DNA from: a virus
Taxonomy: Duplodnaviria > Heunggongvirae > Uroviricota > Caudoviricetes
Reading direction: 5' to 3' (one strand)
DNA length: 61,506 bases
IMG/VR virus record: IMGVR_UViG_3300029740_000238
Position 1 is the first letter of the stretch. Every line of letters begins with the position of its first letter. A program made the position numbers and the translations under genes. Positions 11,401 to 48,112 of the stretch are shown here, piece by piece. The notes beneath the pieces are model-generated. The model did no database searches. It saw only the letters and a list, made by a program, of their open reading frames with translations, and was not told the DNA's origin.

Positions 11401-11537
11401 TTGACGATATATGCGAACTCGATACAATGAATATTGTACGATAGATACCATCTACTAGGCGATATATGCGCTCGTACAATTCACAATCTCGTCGTAAGGC
11501 AGACTTCTCATTTGTTTGGGGAGCCTGCTTTTTTTTA
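11401..11537 (+). promoter_or_regulatory. TGCG promoter + structured leader/attenuator, copy A (upstream of ssb)
   Basis: ttgacg-N16-tacaat; stem attgtacga/tcgtacaat; atagatacca box; ttcacaat; terminator gcagacttctca/tggggagcctgc + T-run. Confidence 0.8.
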
Positions 11538-11566
11538 TTAACTGTCTTTTGAAAGGAGACAAAATC

Positions 11567-12328
11567 ATGACTAACGTTAACATTTTCACCATCATCGGTC
11601 GTCTTACTGCTGATGCAGAAGAATTCACTATTGGCAACAACACATACGTTGGGTTTCGTGTTGCGGTAGACCGTGGACAGAATAAGGAGACTTCTTTTAT
11701 CCCGGTTCGCGCTCCGAAGAAGTTTATCAGTGACAATCTGCGTGCAAAACTCGTCAAGGGCGCACCAGTGTTGGCCACTGGCCGCTTTGAATCCGGCTCC
11801 TATGATAAGGACGGACAGAAAAAGTACTATTCTTATCTGAGTGCCGCAACGATTCAAGCAGATGTCAGTGGCAACTTTGCCGATGGCATGCTGATGGGTA
11901 ACCTGACCGCAGATGTTACGACCCGTTCTACTCAGAACGGAAATAACATTGCAAACTTTACGGTTGCCAGCAACCGTTCTTACCAGAAGGATGGGCAGTG
12001 GGTTGATGTTCCTTCCTTTGTGGCTGTCGCTGCCTCCGGTAAGCTTGCGGAATTTATTGCAAGTCATTTCCATAAAGGTGACCCTATCATGGTTGCCGGT
12101 ACTTTGTCCAGCTATTCTCACAAGAATAAGGACGGTGAAAATCGTACGTTCTACACCGTATGGGCTGACAAAGCATCTTTTGCAAGTCGCGGCAAAGACA
12201 CTACTCAGAACAGCACTCCTGCTCCTGCAGCAACTCCCGCTTCGGCTCCTGCTCCTTCTGCACCGACTTACGGTGAATATGGGGCAGATGAATTCGATGC
12301 GGTTGAAGAGGACGATTTGCCCTTCTAA
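11567..12328 (+). CDS. ssb: Single-stranded DNA-binding protein with two tandem OB folds
   Basis: IIGRLTADAE... and LMGNLTADV... domains; acidic tail EEDDLPF. Confidence 0.9.
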   Translation: MTNVNIFTIIGRLTADAEEFTIGNNTYVGFRVAVDRGQNKETSFIPVRAPKKFISDNLRAKLVKGAPVLATGRFESGSYDKDGQKKYYSYLSAATIQADVSGNFADGMLMGNLTADVTTRSTQNGNNIANFTVASNRSYQKDGQWVDVPSFVAVAASGKLAEFIASHFHKGDPIMVAGTLSSYSHKNKDGENRTFYTVWADKASFASRGKDTTQNSTPAPAATPASAPAPSAPTYGEYGADEFDAVEEDDLPF

Positions 12329-12391
12329 TCATCGATTCTAAGCCCCGTGAGCTGTGCTAACAGGCTATACGGGCGATTACACACTAATTCA

Positions 12392-12428
12392 AGTCGAGAC
12401 TGGCATTCTTGCTGGTCTCGACTATTTT
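12392..12428 (+). terminator. Hairpin/terminator between ssb and the AAA gene
   Basis: agtcgagactggca-ttct-tgctggtctcgact-atttt. Confidence 0.55.
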
Positions 12429-12451
12429 AATTTAATCGGAGGTAGAAAACT

Positions 12452-14269
12452 ATGAATACGCAAAATATGTGGTGGACCGGCAAGACCAATGACTTGCTTG
12501 ACCCTGCGCTGCCTGACATTTTCCATGATGTTCAGCTAGGCATCGGAACGAGGTTTATTGATGACCCCACCGCTGCCAGTGTAAAGCAGGCCGGGGTATA
12601 CCGAACTAATGGACACTGTGTACCGGGCAAAATAACTGCAGATTTCGCGAAGGCATTGTGCCGCGCTGAGATGATTGAGAATGGACGAAAAGTCGGTGCG
12701 TATTCTTGCAACAAAGATGGTCGTACAATGGCCGAGTGGGTAGATAACAATATCTACAAAGAATGTGAAACTGACCATTTGGGGAACACGCTGTGCCTGA
12801 TTTATGACAGAAGCACCGGCCAGATGTACGCATCTACTGGATTTAATGGTAATATTTTGGATGTTGCAAAGATTGGACTTGCTCCTTTCTTTTTGCTTCT
12901 CTGGGGTGATTTTCGAAATCGTATTGACGGTTTTGAAGATATTTTCCAATCTTATGTTGCAGAAACCGACCCCACAAAGAAGGTCAAATGCGCCTGCGCT
13001 TTGGCCGGTACTGCGATGGACGCTATGCTGGAGCAAAACACAGAGCTCAAGGCCAAATATCCCAACAACGGCAACTTGAAAAATGTTACTCAAACCCTTG
13101 CCAAGAGCAAGAAGTTCCTTCCGGACATGGTTTGGGGCACTTTCCAGTTTATGAGCGACCAAAAAGGCTCCGGAGCCAGCAAGTTCACGTTTAAGTCTGT
13201 TAAAGACTTTATTGGCTATTTTGCTGATAACAATCGTATTCTCTCTGACGAGGAGAAGAGCCTGGTCCCACAGCTTGATGACGGATACATCCTTCCCGAA
13301 GAAGTTGTGACTTCCTGCTATCTCATTTCTAAAACACACGGCACCAAACGCCCTATGACCAACATCATGCTGCGTGGTGACCCGTCTGTTGGTAAGACTG
13401 CTGGTGCTCGTGCGATTGCTGCTGGTCTTGGCCTGCCTTATACGTTCATTACCTGCAATGCTGGTACTGAAATGTATAACCTGATTGGCGACATGATGCC
13501 CATTGATTCTACTGATTCTGACGATAGTATCAATGAGGAACTGTTCAAGGACCTGCCGACCGCAACTGATATCAGTATGGACCCCGTGACAGCATATGAA
13601 GCTATTACTGGCGTTTCTAAGGCTGATGCCACTGAAACCGAATGCATGACCGAGCTGTTCCGCAAGCAAATGAAGCTTTGCTCTGAGGCTTGCGGCCAGG
13701 GCTTCCGCTATGTTGAGAGCCCTCTGGTTCGCGCTATCCGCAATGGTTGGGTCTGTGAGCTGCAGGAGCCTTCTCTGATTACGCGTCCGTCCGTCATGCC
13801 CGGTTTGAATGGCCTGCTGGATGAAACTGGCTGCGTCGTATTGCCGACAGGTGAGATGCTGCATCGGCATCCTGACTGCATCATCATCTCCACGTTGAAT
13901 GTTGACCTGGAAGGCTGCCGTCCGCTGAACCAGTCGTTCATCGACCGCCACCATCTCATCGTTGACATGAAATGTCCGAATGATGCGGTTATCATCAAAC
14001 GTATCAAGGGTATGACCGGCTGTGGAAATGATGTCCCGCTGCAGACGATGGTAGATTGCGTTCACCAAATTGCCAAGAAGTGCCAGACTTGTGGCGCTAC
14101 AGATGGCAATGTAAACTCGATGCGCTCTCTCGCGAACTGGGTTCAGGCCGGTATGCTGATTGGCGATTATGCTAAAGCTGCCGAATGGACCGTTGTGAGC
14201 GGTGCAACATCTGACCCGCAGACTCGTGAAGAGCTCATGGGAGTTGTTGCAAACTACAGCTTTGCCTAA
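12452..14269 (+). CDS. MoxR/CbbQ-like AAA+ ATPase
   Basis: Walker A GDPSVGKT; SPLVRAIRNGWVCELQEP; LNGLLD; RPLNQSFIDR; SMRSL. Confidence 0.8.
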   Translation: MNTQNMWWTGKTNDLLDPALPDIFHDVQLGIGTRFIDDPTAASVKQAGVYRTNGHCVPGKITADFAKALCRAEMIENGRKVGAYSCNKDGRTMAEWVDNNIYKECETDHLGNTLCLIYDRSTGQMYASTGFNGNILDVAKIGLAPFFLLLWGDFRNRIDGFEDIFQSYVAETDPTKKVKCACALAGTAMDAMLEQNTELKAKYPNNGNLKNVTQTLAKSKKFLPDMVWGTFQFMSDQKGSGASKFTFKSVKDFIGYFADNNRILSDEEKSLVPQLDDGYILPEEVVTSCYLISKTHGTKRPMTNIMLRGDPSVGKTAGARAIAAGLGLPYTFITCNAGTEMYNLIGDMMPIDSTDSDDSINEELFKDLPTATDISMDPVTAYEAITGVSKADATETECMTELFRKQMKLCSEACGQGFRYVESPLVRAIRNGWVCELQEPSLITRPSVMPGLNGLLDETGCVVLPTGEMLHRHPDCIIISTLNVDLEGCRPLNQSFIDRHHLIVDMKCPNDAVIIKRIKGMTGCGNDVPLQTMVDCVHQIAKKCQTCGATDGNVNSMRSLANWVQAGMLIGDYAKAAEWTVVSGATSDPQTREELMGVVANYSFA

Positions 14270-14277
14270 TAATATTG

Positions 14278-14312
14278 AAGCCCCGACCTTTCTGGTTGGG
14301 GCTTTTTCTTTT
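14278..14312 (+). terminator. Intrinsic terminator
   Basis: aagccccgacc-tttct-ggttggggctt + T-rich tail. Confidence 0.8.
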
Positions 14313-14475
14313 GCATTTTTTTGTTTAGTTTCAAAAATAACGAAAAGGGGACTATTTTGCGTTCGATTCGCAACTTCGCTAAATCTCAGTTTAGCGAAAT
14401 ATAGGGAAGCCTTTTAACTTTTGGAATCTTTACAGGCATCCTGCGATGCAACTTGCCGCAAGCCATACAATTCAT

Positions 14476-14512
14476 CCAGAACTCGCATACCTGTTGGTGT
14501 AAATTCATTTCT
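14476..14512. repeat. par-flanking repeat, downstream copy
   Basis: ccagaactcgcatacctgttggtgtaaattcatttct; the 23-bp core is identical to 17637-17659. Confidence 0.8.
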
Positions 14513-14576
14513 TACAAAATAGCAAACAGCGAATGCTCATTCCAAGCGTTTTCTTGGTAGTGCATCCGCTGCATGT

Positions 14577-15059
14577 TTAGAAATCCTTGTGAATCTGCTT
14601 TTTCAGAAGTTCAGTATTTAGGAGCAGCCCATGGATTGCGTAACGATACGATAGAATCTTTTCGCTGTCATAGGTTCCGAATACATCCTGTGCATAAACA
14701 ACTCTATTCAGCTGGCTTACTTCATCCTCGGTCAAGTACAACGAGACCTGTTTGTTTTTCGTTAACTTTGTTCCTCGTCTACCTTCGTTGGTCGGCATGA
14801 AGGATATGATTTCATCAATCTCTGGTAAGAGATAGTACGATTCATCCAGACCTCCGGTAGCTACCAGCTCGTCGTATTCAGCAGAACCTTTAGAGATGAT
14901 GTACTTGTCCCCTACTCTGCTGACCTTTTGAAGTTCACTTCTAACCAATCGGTTTGTCAGTGTTCCCAAGCGACTTCCTTCGTACCACGCCCGAACTTCG
15001 AGTATTTCCGCAAAGTCTGAACGGAACCGCACTGAAATCGTGCTTTTTTCACTATTCAT
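14577..15059 (-). CDS. Putative tandem ribbon-helix-helix DNA-binding protein, third gene of the par operon
   Basis: STISVRFRSDFAEILEVRA...LTNRLVR and KQVSLYLTEDEVSQL both show an RHH strand-helix pattern. Confidence 0.55.
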   Translation of the reverse strand: MNSEKSTISVRFRSDFAEILEVRAWYEGSRLGTLTNRLVRSELQKVSRVGDKYIISKGSAEYDELVATGGLDESYYLLPEIDEIISFMPTNEGRRGTKLTKNKQVSLYLTEDEVSQLNRVVYAQDVFGTYDSEKILSYRYAIHGLLLNTELLKKQIHKDF

Positions 15060-15074
15060 TTAGGTTTCCCTTAA

Positions 15075-16337
15075 TCAATCCACGGCTTTGATTTTTTCTT
15101 TCAGCTTTGTAGCCATCTCAATCACTTCTTCAAGTGCTGCAATGTCGGAATCTCTCGATTCCTGTGAAACATGGCGCAATGCTTTTTCATAGCTCTTGTT
15201 TGAATAGACTCGCTGCAACTTCTTGATGATTGTCGGAGTGGTTTTTAATACGGCACTTACACTGATATCTGCCGCTTCCCTCTCCTTCTTGGCAACGTCC
15301 TTGGTAGCATCCTTTTGGGCATCATACTCAAAATCTGCTACTTCTTCCGGGGTGTTGCACTCTTTGATAATCCCGAACTCTTCGGCTTTCTTTTTGAGCT
15401 CCTGTAATTCACTGTCAAAATACTCGATGGATTTCTTATAGGTTTCTTCGTGCTCTGCTCTGGTACGCTGCTGCAAGGCACTGAACAGGTATTCCCGGAA
15501 CGTATCGTGAAGCGTATCGCGCATCACTTCGATGTGGTTCTTCCCTGCTTCTTCCCCGGTATCGCCGTGACAATCCACTGCATTGAGCTCTTGATACTTT
15601 TGACCAATCTCTTCCTGCTTCTCATCATCGAATCGCAGATAGCTTTCACACTCGCTTCGGCTCAGGAATTTAGCGTCGAGAAGCTCTTTCAGGCTCCCCT
15701 TCAGTTTATCTTCGAGCCGTGCATCTCTGTCGATGGTTTTCGGGTTTACAGAACTCACGCTCTTGATTGCTTTCAGAGCGTCTACCCTATTCATATTATA
15801 GGGTTCTTTCTGGAGACATTCGATAAAATCTGATACAGCCTTTCTGCGAACTGCCTCATCATTTAGGCCACCACGCACCTGCAGGTTTGCGCTGTAAAGC
15901 AATACCTTCTTTTCGTTATCGGAAAGCTCTGTCGTAATGACATTGCAGTTCCGAACAATCTGCCAGGACGTATCCCCTTCTTCAACAAGCAGCTTGATAG
16001 CTCGATATCTTCTTTCACCGGAAAGAAGAACATAGACCTCTCTCCCCTCTTCTGTGGATGGGAACATGACCAGGTTATGCAACAGGCCGTTGCGCTTGAT
16101 GTCATCCGCAAGAATCCGAATATCTTCATCGTCATCTATTTCACGGAATATTTCATTATCAGGGTTTGTTCGGATATTAAAGAGGGATATGTCGCGGCTC
16201 TCGTATTCTATCTTGTGCTTTGCATTGAGTAAGTCGTTATAAAATGCACCGGCGTTATTGTTATTTACTTTCTTCAAAGCTTCAATATTAGGCAACTTGG
16301 GTGTGGTTACAGGCCCCTTCTTCTTTGTCAATGCCAT
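15075..16337 (-). CDS. parB: ParB-family partition protein
   Basis: IRTNPDN...LADDIKRNGLLHNL...LLSGERRYRA (ParB arginine patch); directly downstream of parA. Confidence 0.88.
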   Translation of the reverse strand: MALTKKKGPVTTPKLPNIEALKKVNNNNAGAFYNDLLNAKHKIEYESRDISLFNIRTNPDNEIFREIDDDEDIRILADDIKRNGLLHNLVMFPSTEEGREVYVLLSGERRYRAIKLLVEEGDTSWQIVRNCNVITTELSDNEKKVLLYSANLQVRGGLNDEAVRRKAVSDFIECLQKEPYNMNRVDALKAIKSVSSVNPKTIDRDARLEDKLKGSLKELLDAKFLSRSECESYLRFDDEKQEEIGQKYQELNAVDCHGDTGEEAGKNHIEVMRDTLHDTFREYLFSALQQRTRAEHEETYKKSIEYFDSELQELKKKAEEFGIIKECNTPEEVADFEYDAQKDATKDVAKKEREAADISVSAVLKTTPTIIKKLQRVYSNKSYEKALRHVSQESRDSDIAALEEVIEMATKLKEKIKAVD

Positions 16338-16338
16338 T

Positions 16339-17199: not shown

Positions 17200-17450
17200 G
17201 TTACGCACCTCATTACTCAAGAGTTGAGTTACTCGAGTACCTGTTATTGTAATTTTAGTCTTAACGTGGTGTTTGACCTGACAGCGTGATTTTTGTCTTG
17301 CAAGGCCCAATTACGAACTCTGCTTGCATATACAAATCGCACAAAATGTCAACACCCACAATCTCAATGATTCAATTATAACATGCTTTAGCTAAATGTC
17401 AACGCGAACTTTGGAGACTGCTTCTTTTTGATATTCTATACAAGCCGTCA

Positions 17451-17659: not shown

Positions 17660-17673
17660 GATGTTTGGCAAAC

Positions 17674-17701
17674 AAAAAAAGCCCACCAAATGGTGGGCCC
17701 T
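17674..17701 (-). terminator. Terminator of rep
   Basis: aaaaaaa-gcccacca-aa-tggtgggc immediately after the rep stop (T-run on the minus strand). Confidence 0.75.
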
Positions 17702-17704
17702 ATT

Positions 17705-24784: not shown

Positions 24785-26758
24785 ATGGCTAACATGCCGT
24801 TGACTGACATTGGTATTACGCCGCGAAAAGCAAGTCAATTTGCTAGTAAGGGAATTGAAACGGTGACAGACTTGCTCGGGTATTATCCGACCAAATACTT
24901 GGATTTCAGGAATCCTATCTCGTTTGCGGAAGGAAAATATCATCAAGGAGAGCATGTTGCCATCAAGGGTAAGGTCGTGAGTGGCCGAGTGATTGATGGC
25001 AAGCATTACATGCTGCGCCTTACGGACGGGAACACTTTTTGTACGGTATTCTGGTTCAATCAACCGTTCCGCACACGGCAGTTTTCAGTCGGCGACGTCA
25101 TTGCGCTTGGCGGAGTCGTTTCCTGGAACGAGCAGTACAACAACATGACAATGGCAACGCCTGACTTTGTCACGACGGATATCGCGTCAGCTTTCTCTAT
25201 CCAGCCGGTTTATCGGAAAATTAAAGGAATGTCGGTGGAATACCTGGAAGATGCCATTAAATTGGCGATGCCTTATACCAGAGAATGCTCGACCGAAACC
25301 TTGAGCCTGGCTCAGATGCGGGCGCTGCGAGTTCCGCCGATTGCTGAAGCCATTCACATGGCACATCAGCCGACCGATGAAAAGGAAATCAGGCTTTCCC
25401 GAAAACGCAGAGCGGTCGATGTGTTGTATCCGTTCTGCTATGAGCTGGAAGCAAAGAAAGCAGAAGCCGCAAAGGTGTCGTTCTGTCGAATTAAGAGTAC
25501 GCGGGACGTTCTGAACAAGATGCGGGGAGTCTTACCGTTCAAGCTGACAGAGGACCAAAAGAACGCTGCTGAACATATGCTCACCGAGATGGAACACGGA
25601 GAACGTGTGGATACCCTGGTTCAGGGTGATGTAGGCTGCGGTAAAACGGTCGTTGCTGAGATTTGTGCATTAGCTATGGCAATGAATGGGTTTCAGTGTG
25701 CCGTTATGGCTCCGACCGTGGTTCTTGCCACGCAGCACTATGAGGAGTTCTCGAAAATCCTCGGCTCGTTCGGGTACAAGACGGTTTTCCTGCGCAGTGG
25801 CATGAAAGCAAAAGAAGAGAAATCGGTTCTCGAAGAGATTGAGAGCGGCAAGGCTCAAATCATTGTTGGAACGCATTCTGTGATTTCCGGGAAGGTCAAG
25901 TATCATAAGCTGGGTTTAACGATTGTAGACGAGGAACATCGGTTCGGCGTTGAGCAGCGTGAAGCACTCAAGCAGAAAGCAAAAGACGGCGTTCACAATG
26001 TCAGCATGAGCGCTACGCCAATCCCGCGCTCGTTGGCGAACACTTTGTATGGGGAAGGCACCGAAATCGTTAATATCCATACGATGCCTGCCGGGCGCAA
26101 GCCTGTAAAGACCATTATCTGGTCCAATGAAAACAGCTGCTACAAATCCGTGTATAACCAAATCAAAGAAGGACATCAATGCTATGTCGTATGTCCATTG
26201 ATTGAAGATTCGGATTCCGAGTCTCTTGAAGGTGTTGATTCGGTTGAAACCACCTACAAAAAACTTACAGAATGGTTTAAGCCGTATCCGGAAGTGAAAA
26301 TCAAGGCAATATCGGGTGACATGAAAGCTAAAGAAGTACAGGAAGGAATTGAAGCGTTTGCTCAAAAGCAGGCTGATATCCTTATCTCTACTACGATTGT
26401 TGAGGTTGGTGTGAATGTTCCGAACGCTACGGTCATTGTTATAAAGAACGCGGAGCGCTTCGGGTTAGCACAGCTGCATCAGCTCAGAGGGCGTGTTGGA
26501 CGCAGCAGCTTGCAGAGCTATTGCGTGCTTCTTTCTAAGGACAAGGAGAATGAGCGCTTAAAGACTATGGCGGCGACCAATGACGGTTTCAAGATTGCTG
26601 AAAAGGACTTGGAACTGCGTGGGACCGGTCAGATTTTGGGCGTTAAGCAGAGTGGCAAAGACGCGGTGATGGAGATGGCTCTAAACTATCCGCAGCTTTA
26701 TCAAGCAGTAAGAAAGCAGGCGGAAATCCAGTATAAAATCGACCATCCGATGGGTTGA
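24785..26758 (+). CDS. recG: ATP-dependent DNA helicase RecG
   Basis: LPFKLTEDQ, QGDVGCGKT, VDEEHRFG, MSATPIPRS, AERFGLAQLHQLRGRVGR, DLELRG. Confidence 0.95.
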   Translation: MANMPLTDIGITPRKASQFASKGIETVTDLLGYYPTKYLDFRNPISFAEGKYHQGEHVAIKGKVVSGRVIDGKHYMLRLTDGNTFCTVFWFNQPFRTRQFSVGDVIALGGVVSWNEQYNNMTMATPDFVTTDIASAFSIQPVYRKIKGMSVEYLEDAIKLAMPYTRECSTETLSLAQMRALRVPPIAEAIHMAHQPTDEKEIRLSRKRRAVDVLYPFCYELEAKKAEAAKVSFCRIKSTRDVLNKMRGVLPFKLTEDQKNAAEHMLTEMEHGERVDTLVQGDVGCGKTVVAEICALAMAMNGFQCAVMAPTVVLATQHYEEFSKILGSFGYKTVFLRSGMKAKEEKSVLEEIESGKAQIIVGTHSVISGKVKYHKLGLTIVDEEHRFGVEQREALKQKAKDGVHNVSMSATPIPRSLANTLYGEGTEIVNIHTMPAGRKPVKTIIWSNENSCYKSVYNQIKEGHQCYVVCPLIEDSDSESLEGVDSVETTYKKLTEWFKPYPEVKIKAISGDMKAKEVQEGIEAFAQKQADILISTTIVEVGVNVPNATVIVIKNAERFGLAQLHQLRGRVGRSSLQSYCVLLSKDKENERLKTMAATNDGFKIAEKDLELRGTGQILGVKQSGKDAVMEMALNYPQLYQAVRKQAEIQYKIDHPMG

Positions 26759-26782
26759 CCCTGCTTGCGAGTCGCAGATAAT
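26755..26782 (+). promoter_or_regulatory. TGCG-class promoter of the bactofilin-sec operon
   Basis: ttgacc-ctgctTGCGagtcgca-gataat; the -35 overlaps the recG stop codon. Confidence 0.65.
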
Positions 26783-27500: not shown

Positions 27501-27535
27501 GTAAATCAAATCACAATCACTTGGAGGAAATAACA

Positions 27536-28813
27536 GTGAATAAACTGAAATCCATCTGGCAGATTGAGGATTTGCGAAAAAAGATTCTCTTTACACTCCT
27601 TCTCATTCTGGTATTCCGCCTTGGATGCAGCATTCCGGTTCCGTTTGTATCCAATACCGCATTGGATTCGATGTTTTCCAATGACAGTATCTTCGGATAC
27701 ATGAACATGCTGTCTGGCGGTGCTCTTTCTCGATGCGCGTTCTTTGCGTTGGGTGTGAGTCCTTACATTAACTCGTCCATCATCACTCAGCTTTTGTGCG
27801 TGGCACTCCCAAGCTGGGAAGCACTGCAAAAAGAAACAACTGGAAAAGACAAACTAGACGAGTACACCAAACGAATTGCTCTGGCAATGGCTGCAATCAT
27901 GAGCATCGGCTATTACTTCGTGCTCCGCAATTACGGAGCTCTTGAGTATACGGCAGGGAAAAGTGGGTTCTTCGCGGCGGTTGTTATTATGGCAACTTTC
28001 CTTGCAGGGTCTCAGCTTTCTGTCTGGATTGGCGGCCGAATTGATGAGTTTGGAATTGGCAACGGCGTTTCAATTCTGATTTTTGCCGGTATCGTGTCTC
28101 GCTGGACCGACATCAACACGATTGCCCATAACATTGCCGTTCAGGTCGAGAGCGGCAACTGGCTGTACTCTCTCGTGGGTATCGGGATGGTAGTTGCAAT
28201 GCTCTTCGCTGTGTGGTTCGTATCCTACAGTGATGGGGCAGAACGTCGTATCCCCGTTCAATACGCAGCACGTAAATACAATGCAAGAGGCCAGGCTTCT
28301 TATATCCCCGTAAAGCTCTTGATGAGTGGTGTGATGCCGATTATCTTTGCTGGCGTTATTATGAGTATCCCGGCAACGGTAGATATGTTCGTAGACGCCA
28401 CGAAGCACGTAAGACTTCATTCGGCCCTTTCTGTATTCTCTTCCGGCAGCTGGATTTACTATGCCGTATACGTTATCCTGATTGCTCTTTTCAATTTCTT
28501 CTATATCGAGATTCAGTTTGATGCTGTTTCGATTTCCAGCAACCTGCGCAATCAAGGCGGCGCAGTGCCCGGATATCGGCCCGGTCCTCAGACAACCGAG
28601 ATGCTGAACAAAGCATTACACAAAATGGCACAGACTGGTTCCTTTTATCTGGCCATCATTGCTCTGATGCCGATGGTGTTTAGTTTAATCAGTGGAACTC
28701 AGATTTCTTTTGGTGGTACAAGCTTGATGATTATGTCCAGCGTGGCGCTTGAGGTTGTGCGCAGCATGGAAGGATATCTGACTGTGCGTCATCATAAAGG
28801 ATTCTTGGGATAA
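27536..28813 (+). CDS. secY: Preprotein translocase subunit SecY
   Basis: LRKKILFTL...RLGCSIPVP, FALGVSPYINSSII, GIGNGVSILIFAGI, RRIPVQYA, GVMPIIFA, PGYRPG, FGGTSL. Confidence 0.95.
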   Translation: MNKLKSIWQIEDLRKKILFTLLLILVFRLGCSIPVPFVSNTALDSMFSNDSIFGYMNMLSGGALSRCAFFALGVSPYINSSIITQLLCVALPSWEALQKETTGKDKLDEYTKRIALAMAAIMSIGYYFVLRNYGALEYTAGKSGFFAAVVIMATFLAGSQLSVWIGGRIDEFGIGNGVSILIFAGIVSRWTDINTIAHNIAVQVESGNWLYSLVGIGMVVAMLFAVWFVSYSDGAERRIPVQYAARKYNARGQASYIPVKLLMSGVMPIIFAGVIMSIPATVDMFVDATKHVRLHSALSVFSSGSWIYYAVYVILIALFNFFYIEIQFDAVSISSNLRNQGGAVPGYRPGPQTTEMLNKALHKMAQTGSFYLAIIALMPMVFSLISGTQISFGGTSLMIMSSVALEVVRSMEGYLTVRHHKGFLG

Positions 28814-28827
28814 AGGGGGAAAGGCAA

Positions 28828-29070
28828 ATGAGCATTATCGAATTTTTCTTGGGCCTTGTGGTATTGGCAGCCAGTCTTGTCGTGAGCTGTGCATGTTATA
28901 TTGTCAAAAACGAAAAGGGTGGCTTGAACGCGGCTCTTGGCGGTGCAAGTGACTTTATGACGACTCGCCGGAATGACAACAACCTGAAAGTAAACAAGTT
29001 TGTTATGAAGGTTGGCGTTGTGCTCACTATTGCGATTCTGGCTCTAACAATTATCGGTGCCCACTTTTAA
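28828..29070 (+). CDS. secG: Preprotein translocase subunit SecG
   Basis: 80 aa; two TMs joined by KGGLNAALGGASD; directly follows secY. Confidence 0.75.
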   Translation: MSIIEFFLGLVVLAASLVVSCACYIVKNEKGGLNAALGGASDFMTTRRNDNNLKVNKFVMKVGVVLTIAILALTIIGAHF

Positions 29071-31378: not shown

Positions 31379-31861
31379 ATGATTGACTGTAATTTGGGCC
31401 CGGATTTCAAATCCTGTTTTCTGGGACATAAACAAAGTGAATATGGCAAAACGTTCACCGTGAGATTAGCAAAACATATGTGTTATGAGGATGCACGGCT
31501 TGTTCAACATTTTGTGAATCAGAAAGCAATGCGGCAGTGGATTGATGCTGTCACGGATTTCTGCGAAGGGAATAATGTGCTGCGGGACTGCCTTATCGGG
31601 ATGACGGCATGTTATGTCGATTACTTCACCAAAGAGCGTGGAACGAAATCTGCCAAGGCAATTATGCAGCAGCAGACCAAAAAGCTGGAAAGCATCCTGA
31701 ACGGAACCTATGTTCCTGAAAAAGCCGAAGCTGAACCGTTTGCTTCCAACCCAAACCTCAAGTCTGATATCAGCCTCACTTCTCTGATTGTTGATGTGGA
31801 TGCAGAAAACATGAAGTTTGTTCCACCGCCAGTCCCGGCCTTGTCAAAGTGTGCGAATTGA
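31379..31861 (+). CDS. Hypothetical protein
   Basis: 160-aa ORF with RBS gaaggtg. Confidence 0.65.
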   Translation: MIDCNLGPDFKSCFLGHKQSEYGKTFTVRLAKHMCYEDARLVQHFVNQKAMRQWIDAVTDFCEGNNVLRDCLIGMTACYVDYFTKERGTKSAKAIMQQQTKKLESILNGTYVPEKAEAEPFASNPNLKSDISLTSLIVDVDAENMKFVPPPVPALSKCAN

Positions 31862-31967
31862 ATAGGATGAATATTGTAAGATAGATAACAATAGTTTTCT
31901 ACCAAAAATAATATTCACAACCCGTAAGCGGATTCTCTATGTATGTAGAGAGTCCGCTATTTTATTT
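31841..31967 (+). promoter_or_regulatory. TGCG promoter + leader/attenuator, copy B
   Basis: ttgtca-N16-taggat; stem gaatattg/taatattc; atagataaca; ttcacaa; terminator agcggattctcta/tagagagtccgct. Confidence 0.75.
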
Positions 31968-31995: not shown

Positions 31996-32952
31996 ATGCA
32001 ATTCTCAGAGAACCAGAAATACTATCTTAAACGCTTCGCAGCTCTTCATATGCCGGAGATAGACCGTAAGGCTGCCTATGTGCGCCAGGAACTCAAAACC
32101 ACCTGGATGGCGGTTGACGCTACATCCGTTCCGGATGGCGTGGTTTATGTCTATCACAATAAGGAGTACAAGCATATCGAGGATATTGTGGCTGATGTCC
32201 TGAATATTCACGGTGATTCAGCCAAAATCATGCAAATCAACAATTCTCGGCTTGCGTGCGAATTACCGACATTCGTAACGTGGGAAAAGGCTGAAACCCT
32301 CTATACGATTCCGGGAGACAAAGAAAAGCGCGAAATCGTGACATGCATGGACTATCTTTCTGTATATGGCATCAACCCGGATGAGGTCTATGCAATGCAG
32401 GTAAAGAAATCCTGGATGACAACGGGAGTTTCGTTTGACCCCGAAGCTTCGATGGAAAGCGGAGACAGAACCGTTGCACTACCGTTTGACGACAACAGTG
32501 ACATGGGCGCTTATTATGACGTTCTGCAAAGTCTTGGAAATGCGCTGCTCGTAGAAGACCGGAGAAACATCCATTGCAGCATCACGTATTCTATTCATAA
32601 CATCGATACGCTGTTCGCTATCTGGCGCGATAAGCCCGGGCTCGAAATGAGTGTCGGATATGCCGAATACCATGTTGACGGAACATACTTCCCTGGCGAC
32701 TATCTGCTGACTGTGAAAGCCAGCGGCGCAATCAATGAATTCGGTAAAGAGCAGTATAAGGCAAAAGCCACGCTGTTCTATGAAAATATGATTGTTGACA
32801 GCGTTGATTATCCGTTTGGAAATGACCGGCTGACGAGCGTTACTACCTCGCCGAACGCGGTTGACAACTGGGCCAAACTCTTCGACTATGCCCGGTATTC
32901 GCTAATGCAGAAAATGCAGTCCAGCAATGCTGCGGTGCGCAGAAACGCTTGA
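31996..32952 (+). CDS. Hypothetical protein
   Basis: Long ORF with RBS after the leader terminator. Confidence 0.7.
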   Translation: MQFSENQKYYLKRFAALHMPEIDRKAAYVRQELKTTWMAVDATSVPDGVVYVYHNKEYKHIEDIVADVLNIHGDSAKIMQINNSRLACELPTFVTWEKAETLYTIPGDKEKREIVTCMDYLSVYGINPDEVYAMQVKKSWMTTGVSFDPEASMESGDRTVALPFDDNSDMGAYYDVLQSLGNALLVEDRRNIHCSITYSIHNIDTLFAIWRDKPGLEMSVGYAEYHVDGTYFPGDYLLTVKASGAINEFGKEQYKAKATLFYENMIVDSVDYPFGNDRLTSVTTSPNAVDNWAKLFDYARYSLMQKMQSSNAAVRRNA

Positions 32953-33081
32953 CGCTGCGTGCGATATCCATACAATGAAAAATGTACGATAGATAACATC
33001 TACTTGGCACACTTGTGCTCGTACGATTCACAATTCGCTTAAAGGGGCGGACTTCCCATCTCGGGAGGCCCGCCTCTTTTT
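32949..33081 (+). promoter_or_regulatory. TGCG promoter + leader/attenuator, copy C
   Basis: ttgacg-N16-tacaat; tgtacgatagataac...tcgtacgattcacaattcgcttaaaggggcggacttccc...gggaggcccgcctcttttt. Confidence 0.85.
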
Positions 33082-37689: not shown

Positions 37690-37830
37690 TTGCACATTCG
37701 TGCGAAGTCAATAGAATAATAGCTGTACGATAGATAACAAACATCGAACGGACGTAATGCCTTTCGTACAATTCACAATTCGCTTAAAGAGGCGGACTTC
37801 TTGAGAAATCGAGAGGCCCGCCTCTTTTTG
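37690..37830 (+). promoter_or_regulatory. TGCG promoter + leader/attenuator, copy D
   Basis: ttgcac-N16-tagaat; leader nearly identical to copy E. Confidence 0.85.
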
Positions 37831-40968: not shown

Positions 40969-40996
40969 TTGCTGAAACGTGCGAATTGTAGAAAAT
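40969..40996 (+). promoter_or_regulatory. TGCG-class promoter
   Basis: ttgctg-aaacgTGCGaattgta-gaaaat. Confidence 0.6.
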
Positions 40997-42369: not shown

Positions 42370-42459
42370 GAAATCGCGGCAAGGGTTCTTTGGTGAGCGG
42401 CTTTTTTGCGCTTCCTTTTATCTGGCAGCAGGGAAAATCTAGTTTTGCACTATTTTCAC

Positions 42460-42598
42460 TTGCCCATTTATGCGAACTGAATACAATAAAAATTGTACGA
42501 TAGATAACAAACATCGATACGGGCATAATGCCTTTCGTACAATTCACAATTCGCTTAAAGAGGCGGACTTCCCACATCGGGAGGCCCGCCTCTTTTTG
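42460..42598 (+). promoter_or_regulatory. TGCG promoter + leader/attenuator, copy E
   Basis: ttgccc-N16-tacaat; aattgtacga/tcgtacaatt stem; terminator aaagaggcggacttccc/gggaggcccgcctcttt. Confidence 0.85.
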
Positions 42599-42624
42599 CA
42601 TTATAAAAAAGGAGCGTAAGAATT

Positions 42625-43887
42625 ATGACCACTACTATCAACAACACCACCACTACCAACAACAATGTAACCATGAACGCACCTGCCTCAGCAACTAGCG
42701 CGGTCGTCAACACAACCATCAACACAGCTGCCGTGACACCCAACTTAAAGGACCCCGACCTTGTGGATTTCACACTGGATGGGGCAGAAGCACAGTACAA
42801 GGCTGGCGAGTACGACAAGCTGCTTGCACAGTGCAAGCAGGACGCAGCAAATACTAAATGGCTTGAGGAGGGGATTCGTGACATTCGTTTTGAAGCGAGT
42901 CATGATGAACCTCTTTGTGCGGATGAATACGCCAAGCAGATGAAAGTGAGCGAGGAAGCGGTCCTTGATACGCAGCAGAACGCAGGGCTGAATCTGACCA
43001 CCTGTATCGGCAAGAAGCCAGTAGGTGACAGTGCAGTCCGCAGCATTTGTGACAGAGGCATGATTGGCATGAACTGCTACGAACTGCTTCGCAAAGAACG
43101 CCGCGAGAGCTTGAAAGAGGTCTTGAACCTTATCCTGGCAGAACGGAAAGGTGCGGTACAGGTTAAGTACAGTTACGACAAGGTTCGTGCTGTGCATTCT
43201 GCCCGCTATGCAGCTATCGGAAACGATAAGCTCCTGAAAATCATGGACGATTATATGGACCAGAACTGGCCTGACCGTGAATTCGAAGGCGGCTATTTGT
43301 CTCACGAACTTATGAAAGTGGTCATCGACCTTGGAGCCTACAAGCAGCAGTTCTTCCGCAAACTTCCTTCTGGATTTTCTGCGGGGTATACTCCGGCAGT
43401 TATGATGATTAGCTCGGATGTTGCTGCATCTGCTGTACGCCTGATTCCGTGCTTGAATATGGGCAGCGGCATTGTGGCACCCATGGCTAAAGATGTGGCA
43501 ATTCCGCATATCGGTGAAGACATTGCAGCACGAGTTACGAATGCTTTTGTGGCTTTGCTTGCGTATTTTGACGATGCAGCTACCGACCTGGATAAGCTGC
43601 GTAATGTTCCAATTCGCAACAGTAAAGCAGCGCTTGTTCGCGTTTTGAAAAGCGGTGGTATGCCGAAGCAGGAAGCACTGGAAGCTCTCGAAGGTTTTGA
43701 CGCTTTGTATGGCGATATGCCTGTAACTGCTTTGGATATCTACTTGGCAGTATGCGATGCATACGCTGGTGTGGTTCGCAATCACACTCAGGATGCTAAG
43801 AAGATTTTCGCTGCCGCTGACTGCGTTGCACGCTGCGCTCGTACTCGCTGGAGCGATGTGGATATGCCTGGTAAGGAGGAGCTGTAA
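42625..43887 (+). CDS. DUF932-like protein
   Basis: VRAVHSARY..I.N and ISSDVAASAV resemble DUF932 motifs; upstream of YqaJ. Confidence 0.5.
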   Translation: MTTTINNTTTTNNNVTMNAPASATSAVVNTTINTAAVTPNLKDPDLVDFTLDGAEAQYKAGEYDKLLAQCKQDAANTKWLEEGIRDIRFEASHDEPLCADEYAKQMKVSEEAVLDTQQNAGLNLTTCIGKKPVGDSAVRSICDRGMIGMNCYELLRKERRESLKEVLNLILAERKGAVQVKYSYDKVRAVHSARYAAIGNDKLLKIMDDYMDQNWPDREFEGGYLSHELMKVVIDLGAYKQQFFRKLPSGFSAGYTPAVMMISSDVAASAVRLIPCLNMGSGIVAPMAKDVAIPHIGEDIAARVTNAFVALLAYFDDAATDLDKLRNVPIRNSKAALVRVLKSGGMPKQEALEALEGFDALYGDMPVTALDIYLAVCDAYAGVVRNHTQDAKKIFAAADCVARCARTRWSDVDMPGKEEL

Positions 43888-43976
43888 TGGTAAAACCTAA
43901 AAATGTATTTATCCTGCTGGTTATAGCCGTACTTGTGTATGGCTTGTGCCGCTGACTTTGAAAGGAGAAACAACCA

Positions 43977-45158
43977 ATGGCAAGCTATGATGGCACCAAC
44001 AAATCCAGTGCGGGATGTGCGCAACATCTCCCGTACTGGGAAATCAATACTCCCTACACCAGGGAACTCTACAATGAGGCAATGGCCGAGGCAAGCCCGG
44101 AAGCAGTTAAATTCTGTAACCCGGACGGCTATAATGGCCCTGAAATCGAGGTCGATGCAAGCACCTTGACGGAGGACCAGTGGCAGGCACGGCGTGCAGA
44201 CCATTTGGGCGGTTCTGACATTTCTGCTATCTTTGGCGCAAACAAATTCAAGACGAATCTTGATTTGTTCTACGCCAAGACTGGAAAGCAGCCGATTGTC
44301 CCGGAAGAAGAAACTTCTCAATCCCGGTTGAATAAGCTGTGGGGTCATATCTCGGAGGAGTATGTAGACGCTTGGCTGTCGGAACGGTATCCGTACAACG
44401 ATATCATCACCGATACCAACATCTATTCCATGCCGGGAAAGCCTTATATCACGGCCAACATTGACCGTATGATGCGCAAGCCGGACGGCTCGTATTGCTT
44501 GGTGGAAATCAAAACTACGAGCTCGTTCAACAAGGCTGAGTGGGAGAATGGCAATATTCCTATTCCGTACATCTATCAGGTTCGCACTTATATGGCGATT
44601 CTTGGCGTTTGGGAATGCGTTGTGGTCTGCATGTTTGACCGCGATACGCTTATCGCAAATACCATCAAACGTGACCTTGATGAGGAGATGCGCATTATCC
44701 AGGGATGTGACGACTTCTGGCAAAACCATGTTGTCCCGCGTATCCCGCCCGAACCTCTTGGTGATACCAAAGCCCTCATGGATACCCTGCATCGTTATAC
44801 CGGCGATGCCAACAAGTCTGCGCCCGGCATTTTGTTGGGCTCTGAATACGCAGAACTCTGTAAAGAGTATACGGACGCTTATGCTAAGTATAAGGCTGCC
44901 AGCGATGTAGCTAAAGGGTACGAAGCCCAGTACAAAAAGCTGGCAGTGCCTTTTGCGATGGCTATGGGCGTTAGTACCCAAGGGACTGTCATTGGTCCAG
45001 ATGGACTCAAATGGCTTGTTAAGCTCACCCCCAAGATGAGCAACGCATCCGTTGACCGGCAGAAACTCGAAGCATTGTACCCCGATGCTTTCAAAGCCTG
45101 TGACGTTCCCAGACGTGAAACGAGCCGGACATTAACGATAAAGGTGGTAAAGAAATGA
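43977..45158 (+). CDS. YqaJ-like viral recombinase / lambda-type exonuclease
   Basis: WQARR..LGGSD, ANIDR, LVEIKT, YIYQVRTYMA. Confidence 0.9.
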   Translation: MASYDGTNKSSAGCAQHLPYWEINTPYTRELYNEAMAEASPEAVKFCNPDGYNGPEIEVDASTLTEDQWQARRADHLGGSDISAIFGANKFKTNLDLFYAKTGKQPIVPEEETSQSRLNKLWGHISEEYVDAWLSERYPYNDIITDTNIYSMPGKPYITANIDRMMRKPDGSYCLVEIKTTSSFNKAEWENGNIPIPYIYQVRTYMAILGVWECVVVCMFDRDTLIANTIKRDLDEEMRIIQGCDDFWQNHVVPRIPPEPLGDTKALMDTLHRYTGDANKSAPGILLGSEYAELCKEYTDAYAKYKAASDVAKGYEAQYKKLAVPFAMAMGVSTQGTVIGPDGLKWLVKLTPKMSNASVDRQKLEALYPDAFKACDVPRRETSRTLTIKVVKK

Positions 45159-45385
45159 CATTACGAGAACATACTGGACGTACGGTCGAGTTCAAGCTGG
45201 TTGACCGTAATACCAACATCGATTTTGCAGAGGATTGGCTGAATGCCGGGGTTCTGCAGCGTGACACTGATGGAGCGTATCTTGTTGACGACATTGATTA
45301 TATTCTCGATTATGTGAAAGATGCAATCAAGGGATGCAATCCAGATGTAGAAGGCAAGTTGAATGCAAATTTATTTTGCTTTTAA
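45155..45385 (+). CDS. Hypothetical protein
   Basis: 76-aa ORF translationally coupled to YqaJ (ATGA overlap). Confidence 0.6.
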   Translation: MTLREHTGRTVEFKLVDRNTNIDFAEDWLNAGVLQRDTDGAYLVDDIDYILDYVKDAIKGCNPDVEGKLNANLFCF

Positions 45386-45397
45386 TTCGCTTTTTGC

Positions 45398-45570
45398 TTG
45401 ACAGTGTATGCGGCCGGAGTAAAATGTTAATTAGTTAATAGATATCATCTTACTTCCACAGCGGCAGCTTGAAAAGTTGTCCTCCGGAACCAAATCCGGT
45501 CGTGGTTCATTTTTCATAATTCGCTTAGAAGCGGACTTCCTGTTTTCAGGGAGCCCGCTTTTTTGTTTTG
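45398..45570 (+). promoter_or_regulatory. TGCG promoter + leader/attenuator, copy F (expanded)
   Basis: ttgaca-N16-taaaat; atagatatca; ttcataattcgcttagaagcggacttcc...ggagcccgctttttt. Confidence 0.75.
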
Positions 45571-45670
45571 AATTCCCAGTGCATTGCACTGTTTTTAATA
45601 GATGTCCGAACAGCTACACATATGTGTTAGTCTGTACAACAAATCACAACCCAAACAAGAAAGGACAATC

Positions 45671-45955
45671 ATGAAAATGAAAAACTTCAAAATCAACTCC
45701 GAAAACATAACCAACATCGCTGCACGAATTGTCGTTGCAGTCGGTATCGTCGTCCTGGCTTTTGTCGCGTTCAAACTCGCAGCATTTCTCCTGACCAAAA
45801 TTTTGTTCCCTTTGCTGGGCGGTCTGGTTCAGATACTCTTCGAGGCAACTAGCTGGATTATCCCGCTGTTCCTCATCAGCCGCACCAAGACTTTCCAGAA
45901 GGCTTATAACGCAGTTCGTGGAAAGCACGAGGAGAAGGAGAACAAAAACAAATAA
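45671..45955 (+). CDS. Small membrane protein
   Basis: RBS gaaagga; long hydrophobic segments; terminator-like hairpin at about 45975-46012. Confidence 0.65.
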   Translation: MKMKNFKINSENITNIAARIVVAVGIVVLAFVAFKLAAFLLTKILFPLLGGLVQILFEATSWIIPLFLISRTKTFQKAYNAVRGKHEEKENKNK

Positions 45956-46195
45956 CAGCACAGCCTTTGTCCGGCACGGCTCATCTGCTTAAAGCGGGTG
46001 GGCCGTTTTTTTGTTGCAAAATATGAGGATGGCAAAAAATGAATGTGTACAAAAGTATAGGCTTGAAAGAGGCAATCGAATACGCGAATGGAAATCTCTC
46101 GAATGCTAAGGTCGCACAGGTGACATCGGAACAGGAACCCCATGTGCAGAAAGACCCAAATGGAGAACAGCGGTGATTCATATGCTTTTTGCTGC

Positions 46196-46303
46196 TTGCA
46201 CATCTGTGCGGGTTGGGTACAATTATAAATGTAGCATGGATACCATCTCATTTAACTTATCATTAACACTCATGCGTTCGGTTGCTACACCGGGCGCTTT
46301 TTT
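46196..46303 (+). promoter_or_regulatory. TGCG promoter + leader/attenuator, copy G (variant)
   Basis: ttgcac-N16-tacaat; tgtagcatggatacca; terminator gcgttcggt/accgggcgc + T-run. Confidence 0.7.
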
Positions 46304-46329
46304 GATATACAAAGGAGGATTTTTTGATT

Positions 46330-47976
46330 ATGTCATTTTATTATAAACCAGAATGGTGCTTATATGCTGCCAGCGAAGTGGAACGAAATCAGGCTGCAAA
46401 AAAGCGCTTTGTTGATGAATATGAAAGCAATGTTTGCTACCGTAAGGAAGCCAAAAACCTACTCAATGATAAAATAATGGGCTTAACGGAAGTCGTACCT
46501 TCTCGTCGTGCCGATACGGTGAAGGTGGCTGCCGTTATGAGTTATTTACTATTCAATGAAAACAAGCCAAAATGGACAAAACTTGTACAGCTGCTGGGAC
46601 GCGATTTTTCCTATATGCCTCGAATGGTAAGTGCAATGTACGCAGGTACGAAGGCAGCATACGATTTCACAGATGAAATCAACAAACCGGAGAACGTGGC
46701 AAAGAGATATCTGTTTTTCTTGTACGGATATGCCAGCCCGGAAAGCCAGCTTCCCCAAAACAAAGATGTCTATGATATCTGGACCCGAAATTTGGCAAAT
46801 TCAGAAGGCGAAGACAGCGCCATCCAAAGAGAATTCTTTGCGAAACTTGGCACAGGCGTACAGAAAACAATTAGTGACCTTCAGAACAAAGTGATTGCCG
46901 ATATGAACAAAGCAACTATTGATGTGAAAGTAAACGATAACTTAACAATCCAAAAGACAGAATTCAGTGATTCGAATTACTCCATCATGTGTGATGGCTA
47001 TGCTATCTGTGAAGATGCTATGTGTCAGGCAGGCGTTGGCTTCAAACCAGTAGCAAACAGACCTCTAACAAAACAAGAGTTCCGTAATATGCAGGCGAAT
47101 CTCGCGGAGGATGTTCAGTTTGTCTGCAAAGAGGACGATGACAGCTTTTGCTTTGGCATGCTGGAGGCCCTTGTCATGGATGGACTTATCACCGTTGATG
47201 ATAAGAACAACATGCTGATTTCCCAGAAAGTATCGCAGCAGACGCTTAATCTTATCAATCTTTATAACTTTATGCTTCCTGTTTACGCGTCAGTCTACAA
47301 CTTGGCGAATGCTTACGCCGATGAAATTCGTAGAGCTGTTTCGCGTGAGCTGTTTGGACAGGATGAGGGTACTTCGGATGAAATGTTCGTTAAGCAGATT
47401 GACGCTCTGAACAAAAAGCTGGTAGACGCAGAGGCTTGTGTAGAGCGAGCTGAAAACAAGGCAGCTGATGCAGACAAGCTGCTGCAGCAGAGTAAGAAGC
47501 GCGAAAACGCTCTGACATCCAAGCTGGAAACGGCGTATGCGGAGATTGACGAACTGATGCAGCTGGTTCCGGAAGAGACAGAGGATGATTTGTCAGATGA
47601 GCAGGAGGCTCTTGAGGAAGAAACCTTGCAGCCTGACGATGAACCCGATGTCGATTATGGAAAAAAGCTGGATGAACTACTTCAGAAATATTCGGTTGCT
47701 GTCGTTGGCGGCAATCAAAACCTGATGAAGCGATTCCAAGTTCTTCATCCCGATGCCATCTATGTGAGCAAAGATATGGTGGCGGCCTGTGACCAGATGA
47801 TTCACGCTGCAGACCTTGTGCTCTGCAAGGTGGATTCCATGTCTCATGCACTTTACAATAAATGCAAAGTGACATGCCATCGTTATGATATTCAGATGAA
47901 CTATCTGCCGAATGTCACATCCTGCACGCGCCTTGAAAAATGTATGTGCGAGATGATTGAGGCACTCTCTGCTTGA
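46330..47976 (+). CDS. Coiled-coil protein with C-terminal DUF2325-like domain
   Basis: Coiled coil, then VAVVGG...ADLVLCKVDSMSH. Confidence 0.65.
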   Translation: MSFYYKPEWCLYAASEVERNQAAKKRFVDEYESNVCYRKEAKNLLNDKIMGLTEVVPSRRADTVKVAAVMSYLLFNENKPKWTKLVQLLGRDFSYMPRMVSAMYAGTKAAYDFTDEINKPENVAKRYLFFLYGYASPESQLPQNKDVYDIWTRNLANSEGEDSAIQREFFAKLGTGVQKTISDLQNKVIADMNKATIDVKVNDNLTIQKTEFSDSNYSIMCDGYAICEDAMCQAGVGFKPVANRPLTKQEFRNMQANLAEDVQFVCKEDDDSFCFGMLEALVMDGLITVDDKNNMLISQKVSQQTLNLINLYNFMLPVYASVYNLANAYADEIRRAVSRELFGQDEGTSDEMFVKQIDALNKKLVDAEACVERAENKAADADKLLQQSKKRENALTSKLETAYAEIDELMQLVPEETEDDLSDEQEALEEETLQPDDEPDVDYGKKLDELLQKYSVAVVGGNQNLMKRFQVLHPDAIYVSKDMVAACDQMIHAADLVLCKVDSMSHALYNKCKVTCHRYDIQMNYLPNVTSCTRLEKCMCEMIEALSA

Positions 47977-48112
47977 CGGATTGTGCGGCACGGATAAAAT
48001 AATAAATGTACGATGGATAACATTGAACGGTTTCATACGTTTGGGACCCGTCGCACAATTTACATTCTGCTGATATAGGCAGCCATCCTTTACCGGGTGG
48101 CTGCCTATTTTT
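47973..48112 (+). promoter_or_regulatory. TGCG promoter + leader/attenuator, copy H
   Basis: ttgacg-N16-taaaat; tgtacgatggataaca; terminator ataggcagccatcc/gggtggctgcctat + T-run. Confidence 0.8.

Follow-up and report, generated by a model that had tools for sequence, protein, structure and literature searches.

Promoter-leader-terminator cassettes repeated on gut megaplasmids, a regulatory RNA family most likely working like protein-dependent attenuators

BglG and LicT act by protein-dependent antitermination, and the lambda pR'/Q system joins a promoter-spacer element and a -10-like hexamer just past +1 to a terminator that yields a short RNA by default. The subject here is a set of eight promoter-leader-terminator cassettes in a 61,506-nt stretch of DNA (IMG/VR virus record IMGVR_UViG_3300029740_000238), which is called the window and was analysed at its full length. 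The RNA target of ANTAR proteins is built from two small hairpins whose six-base loops are conserved (PMC3369931). The EGeRS1 elements are 420-750 bp long and GC-rich, with many inverted repeats and no sigma-A promoter, and occur in 5 copies on pLS20 (PMC8708921). EGeRS2/Reg576 has a dual TTATCCC operator read by a ribbon-helix-helix (RHH) repressor at four promoters, with no leader terminator described in the accessible text (PMC6294495). These statements, and all others below that carry an accession, refer to the accessible parts of the papers.

The cassettes of the window proved to be real and more extensive than was first reported in a sequence-only reading. Judged from sequence, they form a real family of regulatory RNAs and promoters, undescribed so far and unusual in its scale, that most likely works like protein-dependent attenuators. 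The sequence-only reading did not include the TGCG element and the plasmid-wide TGCGA promoter class to which it belongs, the alternative hairpin of the leader, or the scale of the family (35 copies in a near relative, plasmid record G001). It had also offered EGeRS as a precedent, which does not hold for EGeRS1, as this element is promoterless and 420-750 bp long.

Cassettes of the window and anatomy of the leader

Eight intergenic regions sharing a promoter and an ATRGATAHCA box had been described, and their coordinates and strand were borne out: the window carries eight cassettes (A to H), all on the plus strand (Table 1). Each begins with TTG-N8-TGCG-N7-TAnnAT, giving a 16-bp spacer, and in 8/8 the box follows exactly 12 nt past the -10 hexamer. 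As regular expressions, both motifs were found far above resampled expectation; the box occurs on either strand of the window in eight places, all within these cassettes (0.45 expected from 100 Markov-resampled windows), and the promoter in nine places (0.1 expected). The reported GC hairpin with U-tract ahead of the ribosome-binding site (RBS) was present in all eight, and the GC content of the cassettes is 0.31-0.48. A covariance model was built from 35 diverse leaders, which included seven of the eight window cassettes and left out F. It recovered the same eight and no ninth, with the untrained F at E=4e-6; one extra match, on the minus strand (E=0.05), overlaps the terminator of cassette E. 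The order expected of an attenuator, promoter, intrinsic terminator and then the first gene, is therefore present at the level of sequence.

Table 1. Cassettes and leaderless TGCGA-type promoters of the window, in window positions
Feature	Position	Strand	Promoter	Inferred +1	Box1	Box2 start	Terminator	Remarks	Next gene or region
TGCGA-type promoter	1309..1336	+						no leader	
TGCGA-type promoter	7821..7848	+						variant -10, no leader	
Cassette A	11401..11537	+	11401-11428	11436	11436-11450	11480	11499-11528 plus U-tract	bulged weak alternative hairpin	tandem-domain ssb (ATG 11567)
TGCGA-type promoter	26755..26782	+						variant -10, perfect TGCGA-N-TCGCA palindrome, no leader	upstream of bactofilin-secY region
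Cassette B	31841..31967	+	31841-31868	31876		31914	31927-31959	P1 absent from RNA	318 aa, no assigned function (31996-32952)
Cassette C	32949..33081	+	32949-32976 (overlapping upstream stop)	32984		33027	33044-33076	Hodor01 ortholog is the published 'putative oriT'	189-aa HD gene
Cassette D	37690..37830	+	37690-37717	37725		37772	37789-37824		gene without assigned function, primase
TGCGA-type promoter	40969..40996	+						variant -10, no leader	
Cassette E	42460..42598	+	42460-42487	42495		42543	42560-42592		DUF932-like gene, YqaJ exonuclease
Cassette F	45398..45570	+	45398-45425	45433		45513	45531-45558	divergent subtype, long structured insert (also G004, L015)	94-aa membrane protein (45671-45955)
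Cassette G	46196..46303	+	46196-46223	46231		46263 (TTAACA)	46274-46297	short subtype; P1 absent, alternative hairpin not found	DUF2325-domain gene
Cassette H	47973..48112	+	47973-48000	48008		48059	48076-48107		146-aa gene, RecD2
TGCGA-type promoter	50971..50998	+						variant -10, no leader	upstream of T4SS pilin gene

The functions that had been assigned to the downstream genes stood for ssb, WGR, primase, YqaJ and RecD2, but were weak for HD and VWA; DUF932 could be reached only through the published table of an ortholog, and the SSAP label found no support in Pfam, NCBIfam or PHROGs. The view that the motif belongs to no described family was upheld, as the covariance models of Rfam 15 gave no cassette match at E<=1 in the window and none at gathering score on 140 kb of G001 that hold 31 of its 35 copies. 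In the literature, too, the motif was not found described; the candidate-RNA collections of PMC10690425 and PMC8040213 were searched in part and may hold it unnamed, and the motif strings are absent from the searchable supplements of both papers.

The anatomy of the leader was taken from 671 matches, of which 143 clusters were kept; 135 leaders were parsed and eight were dropped because they had no terminator call or no second box. The order is a 5' box1 (GUACGAUAGAUAHCA), a hairpin P1 or a short linker, an unpaired box2 (UUYAYA), an alternative hairpin, the terminator and the RBS. The G of GUACG is the predicted start, because a pyrimidine-purine step lies there, 7-8 nt past the -10 hexamer, in both classes of promoter (with and without box). 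Counted from this start, the leaders run 71-167 nt to the U-tract (median 99), and their terminators have a median of -18 kcal/mol, with two-sided changes in 10 of the 12 stem pairs. Since the RBS lies within 40 nt of the U-tract in 106/135 leaders, there is little room for a second promoter ahead of it. Upstream, the preceding gene lies no more than 40 nt away in 50/116 leader cassettes, with no separate terminator between gene and cassette. When only box1 was searched for, 180 matches came up: 130 have every part at canonical spacing, most of the other complete leaders stand at 1-nt or single-base promoter variants, one complete leader has a replaced promoter, and about 20 are chance matches.

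Among the 135 leaders, box2 reads UUCACA in 73, UUCAUA in 26, UUAACA in 18, UUUACA in 14 and otherwise in 4. Its distance from box1 varies from 13 to 56 nt. In a set of 107 leaders, P1 was found in 80/84 linkers of at least 24 nt and in 4/23 linkers of 23 nt or less, and box2 remained unpaired on folding. As long linkers fold through P1, short ones mostly do not and box2 is left unpaired, the two boxes are likely to be read together in a single strand. The 5' stem proposed earlier was conserved in sequence, but it shows no covariation and is absent from 23/107 homologues. Pairing upstream of -1 was not reliable, and the 'gaatattg' arm of B (31869-31876) and the 'extended' pairing of H had to be given up as leader stems, as they lie upstream of the inferred +1 and outside the transcript of their own promoter.

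Three segments take part in the alternative pairings: segment 1 follows box2, segment 2 is the base of the 5' arm of the terminator and segment 4 lies past the U-tract. Segment 1 is complementary to both segment 2 (1:2 pairing) and segment 4 (1:4 pairing). The 1:2 pairing reaches at least 4 bp in 124/135 leader types, with a mean of -4.39 against -3.44 +/- 0.13 kcal/mol for swapped partners (0/200 swaps as low), and its central pair in 116 anchored rows is U-A in 52, C-G in 42, U-G in 15, C-A in 5 and other in 2. The 1:4 pairing also exceeds that of swapped partners (-5.29 vs -3.97 +/- 0.14); its complements are specific to the individual cassette, and one copy in G004, for example, matches over 13 bp. 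In a comparison of terminators, the excess was seen in 96 leader terminators (1:2 -3.54 vs -2.38 +/- 0.17; 1:4 -5.5 vs -4.1 +/- 0.19) and in none of the two pairings for 220 other terminators of the same plasmids (1:2 -0.80 vs -0.89; 1:4 -4.12 vs -4.11). The terminator fold is favoured over the alternative by a median of 11 kcal/mol, therefore read-through would need help. By alignment, pair counts (MAFFT) were 68.6% paired against 66.6% when shuffled; the covariation score was not significant (60/500), and the hairpin was out of register.

F-type cassettes (window 45433-45660; also G004 and L015) share an extra conserved insert, GTCCwCCGGAACCAA..CCGG, and conserved stems past the terminator, which possibly form a larger structured RNA. 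In the pig-gut run X1, which is labelled metatranscriptomic and flagged 'probably DNA', two contigs over window 45507-46072 have a depth of 1420 and 1943 against 5-17 in the flanks, and one of them spans the terminator of F; in run X2 the depth is even, at 2-4. Transcription of the F operon may be high, which is a lead only, as contigs show neither level nor ends. In G001 (52017-52220; L257:12017-12220) and in both runs, a 67-aa excisionase-like winged helix-turn-helix gene lies between cassette F and the 94-aa membrane gene; it is missing in the window (45640-45653), cut between short direct repeats.

The host element, its promoter class and its relatives

The window encodes Rep3, ParAB, SecY, trigger factor, RecD2, RecG, SSB, YqaJ and a type IV secretion system (T4SS) pilin. 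The nearest of the records compared, G001, is circular (222,366 bp, direct terminal repeats), carries VirB4, VirD4 and a ParM-like actin as well, and has 215 of its 230 called genes on one strand. It is syntenic with G004 (identity of Rep 76%, VirB4 78%, VirD4 86%), which is Hodor01 of group G1 according to the supplement of the Hodor preprint (PMC12934698). The marker set of Hodor G1 (Rep_3, ParAB, ParM, SecYEG, trigger factor, VirB4, VirD4) is present between window and G001. The Hodor giant protein of >7300 aa is absent from G001, the longest protein of which has 2073 aa (7699 and 2625 aa in G004), and no sortases were found in G001 by a search that also missed those of G004. The window element is a conjugative megaplasmid that is closely related to Hodor G1 but does not belong to it, because G001 is without the giant protein. 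The host class is likely Clostridia. PLSDB gave no DNA match, with Rep at only ~25%. The window has a plasmid-borne secY, a secG-like gene and a trigger factor gene (27521-29070 and 10220-11383; secE in G001), and here these stand without the giant surface protein that they accompany in Hodors.

The promoter of the cassettes belongs to a wider class. In four plasmid records, 194 TTG-N8-TGCG promoters lie on the coding strand and 4 on the opposite one. The box accompanies 112 of the 194 and is missing from 82, and the promoter consensus is the same in both sets. In G001 it is the dominant intergenic type (28/41 plus-strand matches, all with a 16-bp spacer) and also stands ahead of the pilin gene. 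The spacer reads TGCGA-N-YYGCA, an imperfect palindrome from -23 to -13 that touches the -10 element, with at least 3/5 matches in its second half in 136/193 promoters. A plasmid DNA-binding protein reading this spacer element would be the natural inference. At four positions in G001 (108799, 117101, 118475 and 130519), TGCGA promoters have a terminator within ~30-70 nt and neither box; these sites are possibly a second leader type or weak terminators.

Leaders number 34 in G001, 39 in G004, 22 in G005 and 28 in G006, on each plasmid on one (coding) strand, and the covariance model finds 35 matches in G001 at E<1e-4, all on the plus strand. Those of G001 lie mostly in the arc from 154 kb through the numbering origin to 55 kb, ahead of small unassigned genes, ligase, Lar, Bro/ANT and methylase-like genes and the DNA-processing genes known from the window; the cassettes span more than half of the plasmid rather than a compact leading region. 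Scans gave at least 197 loci in IMG/VR (9/64 parts), at least 172 in metagenomes (7/64 parts) and 18 in GTDB, in 3 metagenome-assembled genomes (MAGs). In 401 Clostridia genomes no genome had more than 4 matches to the promoter pattern, many of them inside reading frames, and a leader followed 0/16 inspected; a host-generic promoter was rejected. Given these genomes and the 3 MAGs, the motif is plasmid-bound. A lone divergent cassette was seen at the end of a contig of a Faecalibacterium MAG (G003 contig 19; L620:18234-18373), downstream of a recombinase-like gene.

Proposed mechanism and rival explanations

We regard it as reasonably probable, from the sequence features above, that the leader family is a regulon of factor-dependent, cis-acting transcription attenuators, with a trans-acting factor that is probably a plasmid protein. 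Transcription would begin with the G of GUACG and, by default, end ~99 nt on, at the leader terminator. P1 or the short linker would draw box1 and box2 together, and the factor, most likely plasmid-encoded, would bind both single-stranded boxes and stabilise the 1:2 hairpin as an antiterminator that blocks the terminator. After read-through, the mRNA could refold into the long 1:4 stem, maybe keeping the RBS free. Control at the promoter through TGCGA-N-YYGCA would be a probable second layer. The likely outcome is one off-by-default switch before ~20-40 operons, flipped together by one factor. As the terminator wins by default, a positive factor would be needed and not the mere absence of a repressor, and the same switch would gate run-on from upstream operons, because the closely spaced cassettes have no other terminator.

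The sequence-only reading had already proposed that the leaders terminate by default and are read through under a condition such as entry into a new host. Its attenuator part gains from the leader-specific alternative hairpin, which would compete with the terminator, from the scant space left ahead of the RBS for a second promoter and from the absence of a matching Rfam family. Host entry is a possible trigger that does not follow from the anatomy, because a plasmid that has just entered a cell would be without its own activator.

Several observations weigh against attenuation by a factor. P1 is conserved without covariation, and a tree-based covariation test was powerless, with just 2 independent pairs on supported branches; recombination of modules could be the source of the 1:2 correlation. 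Where the arms are atypical (44 leaders), 1:2 pairing does not exceed that of controls (25/44; -3.0 vs -2.9), and within the window the alternative hairpin is weak in A and was not found in G. A terminator call lies within 230 nt of 34/82 box-less TGCG promoters, which the model leaves unexplained. No domain of NusG (PF02357), sigma-70 region 2 or ANTAR was found in six-frame translations of the four records, where ConAn1 itself was not searched for, and the scanned proteins (Pfam on 181 open reading frames (ORFs) of G001 and 48 of the window, PHROGs on 93) include no Q-like or RNA-binding family from G001.

Other candidates for the signal or the factor were rejected. An antisense RNA acting in trans finds no conserved intergenic complement to both boxes in the four records, by exact and wobble patterns that short or split pairing would escape. 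A metabolite riboswitch or T-box was set aside, as there is no Rfam match and little conserved structure. The excisionase-like gene that follows F in G001 has no conserved counterpart in G004-G006, and the Zn-ribbon protein labelled as sigma in Hodor G1 has no G001 homologue and no Pfam sigma match.

The promoter itself could be the seat of control. A lambda Q-like protein on the TGCGA spacer would board polymerase paused at a -10-like TACGAT (+2 to +7) and pass the terminators, with the boxes acting as DNA. Such loading would account for the distance between box1 and the -10 hexamer, fixed within 1 nt, for the TGCG between -35 and -10 and for the terminators that often stand ahead of the gene at box-less TGCG promoters. 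It is nevertheless unlikely, because box2, the dependence of P1 on linker length and the leader-specific 1:2 hairpin are left unexplained. Moreover, TACGAT keeps its last T in only 89%, while +9 to +12 never vary (in part through selection on that box), PHROGs gave no Q-like match among the 93 proteins, and the Zn-ribbon protein already mentioned has no counterpart in G001. We give rather less weight to a Reg576-like repressor regulon, in which the spacer palindrome and box1 would be DNA operators that keep the promoters off in established hosts, and the terminators would damp leakage and end the upstream operon. The second-half matches of the palindrome at the -10 element, the presence of XRE and Mor-like helix-turn-helix genes and the 50/116 cassettes close behind a gene are in line with this. 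However, a derepressed promoter would still face a terminator of ~-18 kcal/mol, and the variable distance between the boxes is bridged by RNA pairing. Repressor control may act as a promoter layer alongside attenuation.

Equally doubtful as the repressor is the idea that the terminated leaders are the product, abundant small RNAs of ~100 nt that sponge a host or plasmid protein while downstream genes live on leaky read-through. The strong conservation of the 5' end, the many copies and the strong terminators could be explained in this way, but every copy lies directly ahead of an operon with no space for another promoter, and the 1:2 and 1:4 pairings are meaningful only in cis. A single-stranded DNA element, be it an Frpo-like promoter, a priming signal or an origin of transfer (oriT), is very improbable. 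All copies do lie on one strand, and the long 1:4-extended hairpins could form in single-stranded DNA. The promoters are, however, already consensus in duplex DNA, and pairing of the template strand equals that of controls (-35, 0.39 vs 0.40; -10, 0.48 vs 0.42; both >0.7 in 3/107), so the template strand does not fold into the Frpo-like promoter that had been suggested as a precedent.

The oriT version has a published counterpart. The Hodor preprint puts a predicted G1 oriT, 171-172 bp long with 63.2% AT, upstream of an HD gene, by proximity alone, and neither 'promoter' nor 'terminator' occurs in its accessible main text (PMC12934698). The G004 ortholog of cassette C is this intergenic region before the HD gene, which there measures 171 bp at 63.2% AT. 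An oriT would be a single nick site next to a relaxase; the label rests on nearness to the 189-aa HD protein, the MobH match of which has just E=0.019, far under the cut-off. As the region is one of 39 promoter-leader-terminator copies in G004, its role as oriT is unlikely on sequence grounds.

Starting again from factor-dependent attenuation, a further-reaching version can be put forward tentatively, and we hold it to be possible rather than probable. The plasmids could run a private two-tier programme, with their own promoter class and ~35 leaders, without a recognisable sigma or known antiterminator. A new factor would read the extreme 5' end of the RNA and the second box, and a single signal would switch most of a 220-400 kb plasmid on and off like the early programme of a phage. 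This signal is perhaps the entry into a new cell, after which the accumulating short RNAs could titrate the factor.

Further observations, implications and comparison with known systems

Other features of these plasmids were noted in passing. An HDV-like ribozyme candidate (RF02682, 31.9 bits, cut-off 44) lies at window 57614-57692, between a 2000-aa gene and an M23 peptidase gene, and the tRNA cluster of G001 has two RF02682 copies above the cut-off. The tRNA arrays comprise 17 calls in G001 (L262:1628-10128) and 19 in G004 (L243) including tmRNA; the accessible main text of the Hodor preprint does not mention tRNA (PMC12934698). At G001 149120-150128 (L262:9120-10128), an XRE gene and the genes for tRNA-Glu, Phe, Tyr, Glu, Ser and Ser lie behind a conventional promoter, a short ORF with many codons for Ser, Tyr, Glu and Phe, and a terminator; the arrangement is kept in G004 and G006 and resembles an attenuator in which a leader peptide controls the matching tRNA genes. 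A small membrane-type ORF at G001 168711 (L263:8711-9076), with orthologs in G004 and G006, is interrupted in all three plasmids by two in-frame TAG codons whose positions match, and sits behind a variant cassette and repeated CACG-ATA-CGG hairpins; read-through or recoding is possible.

The carriers are common, barely studied megaplasmids of the human gut. If the proposed mechanism is true, they hold, on a single replicon, an unusually large attenuator regulon that comes with an RNA motif not described before and an antitermination factor not yet known, and the sequence would define co-regulated genes among several hundred unassigned plasmid genes. It would also make an orthogonal promoter and an RNA switch newly available for Firmicutes, and would put the published oriT of Hodor G1 plasmids in question.

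Among elements of conjugative plasmids, EGeRS1 of the pLS20 family is likewise repeated before several operons and blocks read-through, whereas the cassettes here are ~135 bp long, have their own promoter (consensus in 8/8, by sequence) and occur in ~35 copies (PMC8708921). EGeRS2/Reg576 of p576 shares with them strong repeated promoters with a common motif; its dual TTATCCC motif is absent from the eight aligned cassettes (PMC6294495). The conAn system and the zipper attenuator cATT of pLS20 also act at the level of termination in Gram-positive conjugative elements, but there a single long leader of 456 nt, or a single large RNA, heads the conjugation operon, while here many short leaders are dispersed before mostly non-transfer genes (PMC8191782, PMC13401043). 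In Frpo, the -35 and -10 become double-stranded when the single strand folds, which was seen here in 3/107 only.

With lambda pR'/Q, the cassettes have in common a spacer element, a -10-like hexamer past +1 and a terminator that would give a short default RNA, but lambda has one such promoter, with no RNA antiterminator hairpin or second box, and no Q homologue was found here. As under BglG/LicT control, the leader is short, a small hairpin overlaps the 5' arm of the terminator, termination would be the default and several operons are served. The ANTAR system shares these features too (PMC3369931); no ANTAR domain was seen on the four plasmid records, and a host protein could take that part. 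In contrast to both systems, there is no dual hairpin with conserved hexanucleotide loops, and loop length and sequence vary freely. The conserved bases here are instead single-stranded boxes, one of them at the 5' end, and 22-39 copies are carried on one replicon.

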